From a virus (lineage: Duplodnaviria > Caudoviricetes), in IMG/VR virus record IMGVR_UViG_3300038412_000036, positions 3,123-67,122 of that record: 64,000 bases of DNA. One strand, given 5' to 3'. Numbering within the stretch: the stretch's first letter is position 1; each line of letters begins with the position of its first letter. Under the pieces are notes generated by a model. That model did not search any database and had not been told where the DNA came from. It worked only from the letters and a program-made list of their open reading frames with translations. Shown piece after piece: positions 3,067-64,000 of this stretch. The position numbers and the translations under genes are program-made.

Positions 3067-3363
3067 ATGCGTATCCCCGACGTGCGAAAACAGCTTTCGC
3101 AGGCTGCGGACGACCTCCGGACAGGTGCCCGGAAGCCGGACGAGATCGCGAGAGTGTTGGACTATCTCGTCACAGAGCTGTGGCGGAAGAAGGGACGGCG
3201 TAAGGTTGGCAAAGCCATCCGCACGCCGCTGACACCCGAGCTGAAGAAGGAGATCAGGGTCTATGCTGCAAAGCATAAGGATCAGGACCTCCAAGAGATC
3301 GCCAACCGGTTCAACGTGAACCCGGGCCGCGTCTCTGAAATTCTCTCGGGACCGAGGAAGTAA
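3067..3363 (+). CDS. HTH DNA-binding protein
   Basis: C-terminal DLQEIANRFNVNPGRVSEIL is a typical helix-turn-helix. Confidence 0.7.
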   Translation: MRIPDVRKQLSQAADDLRTGARKPDEIARVLDYLVTELWRKKGRRKVGKAIRTPLTPELKKEIRVYAAKHKDQDLQEIANRFNVNPGRVSEILSGPRK

Positions 3364-60810: not shown

Positions 60811-61611
60811 TTAGCGCAGTGTGAATTGTCCGTGATGCCACTCGTAGTCCGGTCTCGGATAGCGTCCGGCGTCCGGGTCGCGCATAATGAAGCCGTCCGA
60901 ATCGCGGAGACGGATGCGCGCGACGCCACCGCGCACGTCCACTTCCATCACGTCGGCGATCTCAGGGTGGTCGCTCGACGTGCCGTGATAGACCTTGGCT
61001 CCGATGTTCCAGCCCTCGTTGATATACCAGTGCTTGCGGTCAACCGCATGGCTGTAGGCGGCGTACTGTGTCAGGAACGTGCGCTCCGCCTCCTCTGGCG
61101 TCCATGGTTCGATCTTGATGCCCAGCGGCTCCAGCTTGTGGCCCCAGTCGTTGCCGCTGCGGCTCATGAGCTGGTCCCGTTCGTCAACGATGATGCGGCT
61201 ATCAAGTTCATCCTGAAAGCTCGGGATTGGCAAGTCGCCCCAGCCCATCCACTGGCGAATGACGCCGTTGATGCCATGATCCCAGACGCGGTACTCCGGC
61301 ATGTGCTGCTTCACCGGGCGCGGCACGTCAACCAGATACGCCTCGGGAGCGTCATGCATCAGGATTTGCAGCGCGTCGAGTGCGGACCCTCCGCGATTCA
61401 CGACCCACTGCGCGAGCAGCGACGAGTGCTGCGCGACCGGGTAAAAGAACGCAGTGTGCCCGGAGTAGCGGCCCTGATTCGAGAGCGCATGTGCGATGTC
61501 GATGATCGACAACGCCTCGGGCTTCGGGTCGAGCGGATAGAAGGCGCGACCGGTGTAGGTCTCGATGAATTGCGCGGCCTTGTACTTGGTATCGGTTGCG
61601 AGCTGTGTCAT
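60811..61611 (-). CDS. HD-domain nucleotide phosphohydrolase
   Basis: DIAHALS...RY.GH....Y.VAQHS...LMHDA.EAY..D..RPVK. Confidence 0.85.
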   Translation of the reverse strand: MTQLATDTKYKAAQFIETYTGRAFYPLDPKPEALSIIDIAHALSNQGRYSGHTAFFYPVAQHSSLLAQWVVNRGGSALDALQILMHDAPEAYLVDVPRPVKQHMPEYRVWDHGINGVIRQWMGWGDLPIPSFQDELDSRIIVDERDQLMSRSGNDWGHKLEPLGIKIEPWTPEEAERTFLTQYAAYSHAVDRKHWYINEGWNIGAKVYHGTSSDHPEIADVMEVDVRGGVARIRLRDSDGFIMRDPDAGRYPRPDYEWHHGQFTLR

Positions 61612-61796
61612 GTGATGTTTTCCAGTTGGTCGTAGCCCCGCAAAATCTTCTGTGCAAAAATGTACGCCTCGTCGGACTGCAAAATCTGGTAGCTGATCAC
61701 GCCGTCGATATTGCAGTGCGAGATTCGCATGAGCCCAAGCTCTTTGTCGATCTGCACCTTGTAGTCATCCGCCGATTTCGGATCGATCTTTGTCAT
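61608..61796 (-). CDS. hypothetical protein
   Basis: ORF track; ATGA overlap. Confidence 0.6.
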   Translation of the reverse strand: MTKIDPKSADDYKVQIDKELGLMRISHCNIDGVISYQILQSDEAYIFAQKILRGYDQLENIT

Positions 61797-61805
61797 GCCC
61801 CGCCC

Positions 61806-64000
61806 CTACTTCCTCAATCTTTCGCCGATCCAGCCTTCGGCCGCAATCGGCATCCCCGGTGCCCAAGCCGGAGCTTCTGCCATCAGTGCCTCAAATTCGC
61901 CAAGAGTGCAAGCCCCTTTGTCAGCTTCCGCCACAACTTCGTCATGGATGGACAGGAGCAGATCAAAATCGTCGAGCTGATCGACGCGAAGCATTGACTC
62001 CGCGAGAAGATCACGCGAGGATGCTTGGTCGAAGTTCTCCACGAGCGTACCGCCGTGGGTTCCGCAGCGCTTCCACTGCCGGGTGTAGGTGTCGCGGCCC
62101 ATGAACGAAAGGTGCGGTTGTTCGAATGTCTCCGGACTGTCGGGCAGCAAAATCTTCTTCTGCTTCGCGGCCAGCTTCTCGGCGTGCGCGCGAACGCGGA
62201 ACAGCGGCACGCTCTTGCGCTTGACCGGCACCGTGACGATGGTTGCGCTGCCGCGCTCGTTCCGCGCACGGAACCGGTAGTTGAGCCGAACGTGCACCTC
62301 GGGATAGAGGTAGGCGAGCAGCCGTCCGCTCGGCAGGCGGCAGTGCAGGAAGTCGCGATCCATGAAGTAGCTCACCGAGCCGATGCCAAGCTCGTCGCCG
62401 CCGCAGGAATATTCGCCGCCGTAGAGCACGGCGTTGCATGCCGCAGCCTCGGCGTCCTTCCAGAGCGCCGGGACCTCGGGATACATCTTCTTCCGGTACA
62501 GCATGACGATCTTCTGGCAGAACAGGTCGTCGAGCCAAATGCCCTCGTCCATCCAGACCGTCATCTGGAATTTCTCCCAGCCCATGGCGTAGCCCAGCCC
62601 AAGAATGGCTTTCTTGCCGAGCTGGCGTTCGGTCTTGTCGGCCTTGGTGATCGGGCGGCCGTAGATCGCCGTAGCCATGTCGAGATACGGATCGCCGCCG
62701 GGAGTGTTGAACAGGTTGAGCAGGCGGGTGCAGCCGGACAGCCACGCGAGCTTGCGCGCCTCGATGGCGTTGAAGTCGGCAGCGTAGAGCACGCGGCCCG
62801 GAGTCGCCGTCAGCGCGCCGCGCGCAGCCTTGGCGATAGCGACCATCGGCTCGCCCCACATCATCGTGATCAGGCTGAAGTCGAGATGCTTCAGGTCGTG
62901 CCAGAAGTCCATCATCTCGTCGCGGCCATCGATCAGCTTCTTGTAGCCCGCGCCGTAGCCGCGCACGAAGTTATGCGGCTGCACACCCTTACCTGACCAG
63001 CGGCCGGTGCGGTCGGCACCGTTGTAGAGCATGATGTCGTGAAGGCGCGGCTCGCCCTCCTTCTTTTCGACATAGCTGTCAAGCATGCGGCGATACTTCG
63101 CGACGGAGGACTTGTTACCCTCCATCGCGATCTCCAGCACGCGCTTGATCGGCACGCCCGCCTCCCCGAGCGCAGCCCACTTCTCGTCCATCTTCGGTTT
63201 GTTGGTCTCTTTCGCCGCGTCGCCCGCTTTGGTCGGCACACCATAGAGCGCGAAGGAGAACGTGTCGGCCTTCGTGTCAGGTAGTGGCGCAACGTTGAGC
63301 GCGGTCAGTTTCTTGTTAATCCACTTGAGCAGCGGTTTGCGACGGGTGAAGCCCTCCACCTCGCCTTCCGTCTCTTTCCTCAGCTCCATGTTGAGCCGGA
63401 TCGCCTCGGTCTTCGCAGTCTTCAGACCAAGCTCCGCTGCCTCCTTGTCGAGGTAGATGCCCCGATCATTCATCTTGAAGTCCATGACCCAGTACGCGCG
63501 CTCGCGCTCGGACATCTCGGGGCAATACTTCGACAAAGCGTGTTCCGCGAGCACGTCGTCGCCGCAATATTCCCAGTTCTCCCGGTGCAGCGCCTCGTCC
63601 TCGTTCCAGCGGAGCACCCGCTTGGCTTCAGGGTCATATTCCGGAATGACGATATCAGACTGATACGGTTTCGGCACTGTCAGCGTGCGGTACTCGCCGC
63701 CGATAATGCCGTCCCACTCCAGCCATCCGCGATCTTTGCATCGATTGAGGACGACTTGGATGGACTGGCCCGGCTCCTTCACAAGCTCGGGAGGGTAGAA
63801 GGCGAGGATCGGCTCCAGCTCGCGCTTCGCCTCCGCCGACGTAAAGGTCGTGCCCGGCGGGAAGAGCGCGAATAGTTGCTTCGCGCAAGCCTTCTGGTGC
63901 TTGTCGCCCGGCTTGATGACGACGGGCTTGTTCGAAGACGACATCGGCTTCGACAGCCGTTGGATCAGATACCGGCCGCGCGGGTTCTTGCGCCGATCCA
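61806..64000 (-). CDS. polA: DNA polymerase family A (5' end outside window)
   Basis: YNGADRTGRWSG, motif A ADFNAIEAR, motif B RQLGKKAILGLGY, motif C IHDEVV; exonuclease YC.DDV; frame stays open to window end. Confidence 0.93.
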   Translation of the reverse strand, partial: DRRKNPRGRYLIQRLSKPMSSSNKPVVIKPGDKHQKACAKQLFALFPPGTTFTSAEAKRELEPILAFYPPELVKEPGQSIQVVLNRCKDRGWLEWDGIIGGEYRTLTVPKPYQSDIVIPEYDPEAKRVLRWNEDEALHRENWEYCGDDVLAEHALSKYCPEMSERERAYWVMDFKMNDRGIYLDKEAAELGLKTAKTEAIRLNMELRKETEGEVEGFTRRKPLLKWINKKLTALNVAPLPDTKADTFSFALYGVPTKAGDAAKETNKPKMDEKWAALGEAGVPIKRVLEIAMEGNKSSVAKYRRMLDSYVEKKEGEPRLHDIMLYNGADRTGRWSGKGVQPHNFVRGYGAGYKKLIDGRDEMMDFWHDLKHLDFSLITMMWGEPMVAIAKAARGALTATPGRVLYAADFNAIEARKLAWLSGCTRLLNLFNTPGGDPYLDMATAIYGRPITKADKTERQLGKKAILGLGYAMGWEKFQMTVWMDEGIWLDDLFCQKIVMLYRKKMYPEVPALWKDAEAAACNAVLYGGEYSCGGDELGIGSVSYFMDRDFLHCRLPSGRLLAYLYPEVHVRLNYRFRARNERGSATIVTVPVKRKSVPLFRVRAHAEKLAAKQKKILLPDSPETFEQPHLSFMGRDTYTRQWKRCGTHGGTLVENFDQASSRDLLAESMLRVDQLDDFDLLLSIHDEVVAEADKGACTLGEFEALMAEAPAWAPGMPIAAEGWIGERLRK

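Follow-up and report, generated by a model that had tools for sequence, protein, structure and literature searches.

Accessory inserts in phage family-A DNA polymerases are the source of the processivity of the T7 enzyme, and domains of this kind are useful in enzyme engineering. In T7 DNA polymerase (gp5), the thioredoxin-binding insert lies in the thumb of the polymerase domain; it is not a winged helix, and it binds host thioredoxin. Here we describe a winged-helix insert of about 110 residues in the proofreading (3'-5' exonuclease) domain of a family-A DNA polymerase from a virus of the Caudoviricetes (IMG/VR record IMGVR_UViG_3300038412_000036, recovered from a mine-drainage metagenome). 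The stretch analyzed, hereafter the window, comprises 64,000 nucleotides, positions 3,123 to 67,122 of that record, and the polymerase gene is cut off by its end. The full-length, 873-residue copy of the polymerase was found on a second contig and is called P0001. We show that the insert is a member of a very divergent family of winged-helix cassettes that is so far found only at this site in this polymerase clade.

An earlier note on this DNA had recognized an extra domain here, likened it to the C-terminal winged helix of the restriction enzyme R.DpnI, and proposed a polymerase that reads N6-methyladenine (m6A). The winged helix of DpnI forms two methyl pockets and reads GATC with residues E228, K229, R231, Q232, and Q235 (PMC3424567), a mode that depends on two methyls on adjacent base pairs, an arrangement found only with the one-nucleotide stagger of GATC (PMC4117772). 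Prokaryotic winged helices widely serve as m6A sensors when fused to nucleases, and only about 10% of winged helix-nuclease fusions keep the m6A/GATC motif (PMC11037411). The best explanation that we can offer for the insert is an accessory docking module on the proofreading domain, its target most likely being duplex DNA, and not a DpnI-type reader of Gm6ATC. We give this reading a probability of roughly 0.45.

An in-frame winged helix in the proofreading domain

The insertion is apparent from the spacing of conserved motifs. Among 120 metagenomic homologs, the distance from 'L[IM]xKLSKP' to 'NWxYCxxDV' is bimodal: about 65 have 18-28 amino acids (aa) between the two motifs, about 23 have 93-132 aa, and 5 have 40-51 aa. 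The window's polymerase has 122 aa. When searched against cultured phages with tblastn, the N-terminal 330 residues align to only 262-268 codons. The same gap appears in a multiple alignment with the polymerases of phages RDJL3, RcSimone-Hastad, RDJL Phi 2, PaMx74, and Bosa, in which the extra residues fall between the '(K/R)L(S/A)KP' helix and 'W(H/N)E...YC..DV'. The junction is clean at the DNA level, where the 'AKRKGFTG' linker (8-9 residues) of insert-less relatives is swapped for about 110 residues, and the GC content of the insert (0.605; 0.79 at third codon positions) is like that of the rest of the gene. The surface linker between Exo II and Exo III in the proofreading domain here holds, in frame, about 110 residues that fold as a winged helix. 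The earlier note had placed an extra domain between RYLIQRLSKP and Exo III and had proposed an alignment with related PolAs to confirm it; motif spacing, the alignments with cultured-phage PolAs, and the junction all bear the insertion out. The features at the insertion site are as follows.

63945 to 63974, minus strand: RYLIQRLSKP, the conserved helix just before the insertion point, P0001 residues 152-161 ('L[IM]xKLSKP' in nearly all homologs; K160 and P161 invariant)
63615 to 63941, minus strand: in-frame insert of about 110 aa, P0001 residues 163-271, in place of an 8-9-residue basic linker (motif spacing; DNA and protein junction alignment)
63552 to 63578, minus strand: Exo III motif NWEYCGDDV (Y287 and D291 of P0001, both invariant in alignment A2)

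An intein would be expected to begin with Cys, Ser, or Thr, to end in His-Asn followed by Cys, Ser, or Thr, and to adopt the HINT fold. This candidate was rejected, since the insert ends in '...AKRVL' before 'RWNEDE', without a C-terminal His-Asn, and its fold is a winged helix.

To model the fold, we used an alignment, A3, of inserts cut from 16 loci by DNA reference; its members are only 14-25% identical to the window's insert. AlphaFold2 given the single sequence produced a model too poor for use, with a predicted local distance difference test score (pLDDT) of 51. With A3, the mean pLDDT rose to 82.1 and exceeded 90 in the core, with 10-residue blocks at 84-95 over residues 11-90, and the model is a canonical winged helix of topology H1-b1-H2-H3-b2-b3. 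The rise from 51 to 82 upon addition of 16 sequences indicates that co-variation supports the fold, and the earlier assignment of a winged helix is upheld. Its parts are listed below in the numbering of the 712-aa open reading frame (ORF) that runs from the ATG at 63944. This ORF is an artefact of contig truncation; its ATG is codon 162 of the gene and not a start.

63675 to 63905, minus strand: winged-helix core, with H1 16-27, b1 33-35, H2 36-47, H3 58-71, b2 75-78, and b3 84-87 (AlphaFold2 with A3; VIA-align Z 8.6-10)
63732 to 63773, minus strand: putative recognition helix H3 (PGQSIQVVLNRCKD), in which the family-conserved Arg is Gln63 (A3 column statistics)
63684 to 63722, minus strand: wing beta-hairpin (LEWDGIIGGEYRT) with family-conserved Gly83 (15/16 in A3) and Tyr85 (12/16); model strands 75-78 and 84-87

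The extent of about 75 aa at 63680-63900 given in the earlier note describes the core well (residues 14-90, at 63675-63905) and falls short of the whole insert of about 110 aa (63615-63941).

Over model residues 11-89, VIA-align matches the model to many solved winged helices with Z values of 8.6-10.0. These include the cullin WHB domain (Z 9.2-10.0), the Rpa2 winged helix of P. abyssi (Z 9.3, root-mean-square deviation (rmsd) 1.9 Å), and the winged helices of ORC, MCM, and Stn1 (Z 8.6-8.9). DpnI is matched by its chain 4kyw_A with a Z of 9.0 and an rmsd of 2.2 Å over 72 residues, which is the whole domain (DpnI 183-254), at 19% identity; its matches range over Z 8.8-9.0, rmsd 2.2-2.6 Å, 70-72 residues, and 19-20% identity, with 4esj_A at Z 8.8. 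The DpnI match lies within 1 Z of those to cullin WHB, Rpa2, ORC, MCM, and Stn1, so these matches are tied and do not discriminate. The likeness to DpnI therefore survives as one of the best structural matches, and not as a specific one.

Searches at the level of sequence returned no named relative. The insert alone matches no family in Pfam, PHROGs, or PDB sequences, and a Foldseek search of the insert model against the PDB and BFVD gave nothing at E<=1e-3. An exhaustive phmmer search of 1.8 billion representatives with a 118-aa piece found only two spurious repeat proteins (SpaA/FG-GAP; a tandem-repeat ORF). A match to the CSF1R Ig domain (E 0.009) was dismissed as a short compositional match to a beta-sandwich. 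The best match of the A3 profile among PDB sequences is to H2-H3 of forkhead, 'SIRHSL', with an E value of 0.21 that is below significance, and there is no match to the Pfam forkhead family (PF00250). In the ESM Atlas, a second family member is associated with DUF7225, DUF7669, DUF3860, and HARE-HTH (PF05066; 0.86); DpnI_C is not among them, and HARE-HTH is without a Pfam match.

The residues quoted in the earlier note were confirmed in minus-strand sequence at the window's extreme end. Position 64000 is also the end of the 67,122-bp IMG/VR fragment (completeness about 63% by CheckV estimate), which breaks off inside the polymerase gene. Joining the contig ends into a circle to complete the polymerase ORF was tried and gained only 28 codons before a stop; the contig is therefore a fragment, and the gene is truncated rather than closed. 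A homology search with the first 125 residues led to a Logan contig of 92,478 bp that encodes the full-length polymerase, P0001. The locus on this contig (L001) matches the window over 12,195 nt without a single mismatch, so P0001 is the window's own polymerase. The first 143 of its 873 codons lie beyond the contig end, and the N-terminus that they encode holds Exo I (LDFETR) and Exo II (HNAGFE), with Exo III (YCGDD) following the insert. RYLIQRLSKP is accordingly coding sequence, as had been proposed. The protein is a family-A polymerase with a DEDDy 3'-5' exonuclease, as judged from matches to PF00476 (E 4e-13 to 7e-13) and from Exo I, II, and III motifs sought as DxE, Nx2-3[FY]D, and Yx3D, respectively. 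A PDB-sequence search with the exonuclease domain matched no solved PolA on which the insertion site could be mapped.

61806 to 64000, minus strand: 3' part of the family-A DNA polymerase gene, 730 codons and the stop of 873 (ORF list; PF00476, E 4e-13; phrog_17, E 2.5e-69; full-length P0001)
62556 to 62831, minus strand: best-scoring stretch of DNA_pol_A (PF00476), P0001 residues 533-624 (hmmscan)

Exo II (P0001 residues 89-94, outside the window; L001:10265-10282) carries Glu at the usual DEDDy Asp position. No family member departs from this Glu, so the motif is probably functional in this variant form. Past the contig end (L001:10001-10427), L001 continues with a replication module that encodes an Enc34-type single-stranded DNA-binding protein (SSB), a PDDEXK/DUF2800 nuclease, a HIRAN protein, a GapR-like protein, and a Prim-Pol/DUF5906 primase. 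The presence of GapR upstream, together with relatives that infect Roseobacter and Rhodobacter, suggests an alphaproteobacterial host. No RNA data set is listed for this DNA. Directly downstream of the polymerase are ORFs of 62 aa and 266 aa (window 61608-61796 and 60811-61611, both on the minus strand), which match no Pfam family on record; their position is kept in related phages, where homologous slots of 290-330 aa occur (L096-L100).

Distribution and exchange of the cassettes

We then placed the insert on a tree of 77 polymerases from which the insert columns had been removed. To account for the insert in its 17 rows, the tree requires 14 or more gains or losses, of which no fewer than 10 are imposed by branches with good support. 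This count is no better than that for shuffled labels. An approximately unbiased test with 40 rows rejects a single insert-bearing clade (log-likelihood difference 1911, p 2e-81). Polymerases with and without the insert can be closely related, with backbone identities of 94% for P0024/P0045, 93% for P0052/P0083, and 83% for P0001/P0004. Identity of the inserts is likewise decoupled from that of their flanks (means 29% vs 67%, r 0.38): pairs whose flanks are 81-86% identical carry inserts that are only 19-32% identical, and a few pairs share a subtype at 76-77%.

Within an insert subtype, the ratio of nonsynonymous to synonymous substitution rates (dN/dS) is 0.15-0.23, compared with 0.16 in the polymerase, with dS saturated. 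These ratios indicate purifying selection on the insert, as on the polymerase. A profile search in longer proteins returned polymerases only, with no winged-helix insert outside them, and the polymerase family was not found among 185,579 prokaryote genomes.

These data show that the cassettes are optional, that they comprise several old subtypes, and that they are shuffled independently of the polymerase backbone and kept by purifying selection. The simplest reading is that old cassette subtypes and an empty allele circulate in this phage group and are exchanged by recombination through highly conserved flanks. Domain-level mosaicism, which usually operates between genes, here operates inside an essential replication enzyme. 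Moreover, cassettes that are present or absent in one proofreading-domain loop at 93-94% identity provide natural matched pairs for the effect of a DNA- or partner-binding head on a replicative polymerase. In the open-access literature, to which our search was limited, we found no description of an in-frame winged-helix cassette in an exonuclease domain.

Other insertions occur in these polymerases. In other members of the clade, this very loop contains a second, unrelated insert of 93-95 aa (L064:1358-1636; also P0056 and P0108), and the backbone of P0108 is 90% identical to that of P0024, which bears the winged helix. The same linker also has variants of 40 aa and 51 aa ('RRRTIRVVDPELIALGFTKKDATTITTVME'; L015:3448-3567, L018, L022, L077; P0073), and because of these variants the loop appears to be a general insertion hot spot. 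Pfam and PDB searches with the second insert type and with the 40-aa inserts were uninformative. Many polymerases of the family are 1000-1340 aa long (P0046, P0049, P0050, P0062, P0065, P0066, P0079, P0087, P0093, P0097, and P0099), and their additional sequence probably consists of inteins within the polymerase domain. A weak LAGLIDADG match is seen in P0079, at residues 664-723.

Possible targets of the winged helix

The family consensus points to DNA as the target of docking. In H3 it reads [IV]-R-[ND]-x-[LF]-[NHQ]-R, with Arg in 15/16 members of A3 and Gln in the window's copy, and in the wing of A3 it reads G-x-Y-x-W. With this polar face (Arg, Asn/Asp, Asn/His/Gln, Arg), H3 of the family appears to resemble the helices with which forkhead and DpnI-type winged helices read DNA. 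An H3 and wing of this consensus are typical of major-groove readers, which is why docking onto DNA is favored. Two links below significance point the same way, namely the forkhead H2-H3 match of the profile (E 0.21) and the weak DpnI_C match of one member, which falls in H3 and the wing. The winged helix would dock onto duplex DNA via its recognition helix and wing, and different cassette subtypes would confer different specificities; targets specific to each subtype would in turn explain the exchange of cassettes between near-identical polymerases. In the window's copy, Gln stands in place of the conserved Arg and is followed by Val; the target or affinity of this copy is therefore likely to lie off the family norm.

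A number of observations weigh against DNA docking. Most of the winged-helix cores are acidic to neutral overall, with net charges of -8 to +4 (0 for the window's copy, with a pI of 6.8), an uncommon property among DNA binders. Two protein-binding winged helices, cullin WHB and that of Rpa2, head the structural matches. The window's copy lacks the family's conserved Arg, having Gln-Val where the family has Arg-Asn, and no link to a DNA-reading winged helix reaches significance at the sequence level. The role itself is predicted from the sequence and the fold model.

Some of these same observations speak for a protein-docking module, in which the winged helix would bind a replisome partner or a host factor in the manner of RPA32/Rpa2 or cullin WHB, and its subtypes would track partners or hosts. 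Protein binders give the best structural matches (cullin WHB with Z up to 10.0, and P. abyssi Rpa2, which was solved with PolD and primase), and the acidic to neutral charge, the optional presence, and the exchange of subtypes all fit variable partners. In addition, the window's copy exposes a hydrophobic Val-Val on a helix where the family has Arg-Asn. However, the neighboring replication genes (Enc34-type SSB, helicase) are the same with and without the insert. The Z values are also tied with those of DNA-binding winged helices, and the conserved Arg/Asn/His/Gln face of H3 fits a DNA reader better. We regard protein docking as unlikely, though it is the main rival to docking onto DNA.

The insert could also be a passenger with no part in polymerase function, left behind in frame by a mobile or recombining element and tolerated in a permissive surface loop. 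This would account for a sporadic distribution that is indistinguishable from random on the tree and for the other inserts of 40, 51, and 93-95 aa in the same loop. Furthermore, selfish elements are frequent in this polymerase family (the 1000-1340-aa forms, one with a LAGLIDADG match), and the insert-less enzymes are evidently functional. A passenger would not, however, be expected to evolve under purifying selection as strong as that on the polymerase (0.15-0.23 vs 0.16), nor to keep its frame and fold across subtypes that are 14-25% identical. The insert is unremarkable in composition, lacks a nuclease or any other function in mobility, and resembles an intein neither in its junctions nor in its fold. 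A passenger role is distinctly improbable.

At a still lower probability, the cassettes may be modification- or sequence-reading heads that descend from DpnI-type or HARE-type winged helices. The polymerase would then tell marked from unmarked DNA, whether phage from host or parental from nascent, and subtypes would be swapped as hosts and DNA marks change. If true, cassettes that read marks in this way would make for a template-discriminating replicative polymerase, but we consider this quite doubtful.

By the proposal of the earlier note, the insert would be a DpnI-like reader of m6A in GATC or GANTC, and the polymerase would sense the methylation state of its template. Several lines of evidence are compatible with it. 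The DpnI winged helix ranks in the top tier of structural matches, where its sequence identity (19%) exceeds that of the other distinct top families, and m6A sensing by winged helices on nucleases is common in prokaryotes (PMC11037411). In the ESM Atlas, the nearest named cluster of the window's protein is DpnI_C, at 0.89 and so under the 0.9 line. One relative, P0079, matches PF17726 (DpnI_C) in its H3 and wing at 13.4 bits (E 0.091), below the curated cut-off of 23 bits, and a few relatives keep 3/5 of the DpnI contact residues, although none keeps 5/5. Finally, GANTC is strongly depleted in contig G000 plus L001: 175 sites are observed, and the observed/expected ratio is 0.79 under a maximal-order Markov model and about 0.47 (z about -10) under a first-order one. 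Neither GATC nor the control palindromes show such depletion. The scarcity of GANTC is consistent with CcrM or a HinfI-like system in the host and has no bearing on the insert.

Other comparisons go the other way. A search for PF17726, the family named in the earlier note, gave no match to the window's protein at E<=10 and none in the six frames of the contig. DpnI was never recovered from PDB sequences, whether with the A3 profile or by phmmer with the insert of P0079, and the DpnI_C lead in the ESM Atlas was not reproduced with the second family member. In the family register, 'QSIQVVLN', the putative counterpart of the DpnI recognition helix, 0/5 DpnI contact residues are identical. When the five-residue pattern is slid along the helix region, no position matches more than 2/5; that position lies in a Pro-Gly loop outside the helices, and a shuffled sequence does equally well. 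The low retention of the m6A/GATC motif among winged helix-nuclease fusions (about 10%; PMC11037411) also counts against an m6A reader. Since the adjacent-methyl geometry is unique to GATC (PMC4117772), a DpnI-type mode would not carry over to the GANTC sites of CcrM. No N6-adenine methyltransferase family (PF01555 or PF02086) was found in the 67-kb contig. The insert is dispensable in polymerases that are 93-94% identical, and its being optional among such near-identical enzymes argues against the core role implied by the earlier pairing with CtrA/CcrM sensing. The DpnI-specific, m6A-reading interpretation is not supported and is very improbable; it was the source of the locus's striking look, and the cassette stands without it as a real, optional, exchangeable member of a domain family.

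Comparison with known systems

The closest comparison is with the insert-less relatives, namely the polymerases of Roseobacter phages RDJL3 and RDJL Phi 2, Rhodobacter phage RcSimone-Hastad, Pseudomonas phage PaMx74, and Xanthomonas phage Bosa, and the metagenomic P0004 and P0005. They have the same Exo I, II, and III motifs, 'KLSKP' helix, polymerase domain, and neighborhood (SSB upstream, helicase downstream), and P0004 is 83% identical to P0001 outside the insert. They differ in having 18-55 residues where the window's polymerase has 122.

The insert shares its fold with the C-terminal winged helix of R.DpnI (PF17726; PDB 4ESJ, 4KYW) over the whole 72-residue domain, and both are attached to a nuclease-type domain. 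At the family level, H3 also shares an Arg and a Gln/Asn/His position with R231 and Q235 of DpnI, in an inferred register. However, the window's insert has no significant sequence or profile match to it and does not conserve E228, K229, R231, Q232, or Q235. Moreover, the DpnI winged helix lies C-terminal to a PD-(D/E)XK endonuclease, whereas the phage insert lies inside the DEDDy exonuclease domain of a polymerase. Forkhead/HNF-3 (PDB 1VTN) is the best PDB-sequence match of the insert profile, through H2-H3 with 'SIR(H/N)xL' (E 0.21, not significant), but it is a eukaryotic transcription factor, and the window's copy has Gln in place of the Arg.

The winged helices of Rpa2/RPA32 and Stn1 (PDB 9F27, 9F2A, 9F26, 4JQF, 8SOJ) are fold matches of equal rank (Z 9.3 with rmsd 1.9 Å; Z 8.6), and they resemble the insert in their replication context and acidic to neutral surface. 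In those proteins, the winged helix is carried by an SSB-like partner and docks onto the polymerase or primase, whereas here it is carried by the polymerase itself, and identity is 6-11%. The insert of T7 gp5 would offer the parallel in design, being a lineage-specific, in-frame addition of about 70-110 residues to a phage family-A polymerase that provides accessory docking without catalytic change. The window's insert differs from it in lying in the exonuclease domain, in being a winged helix, and in being optional among close relatives.

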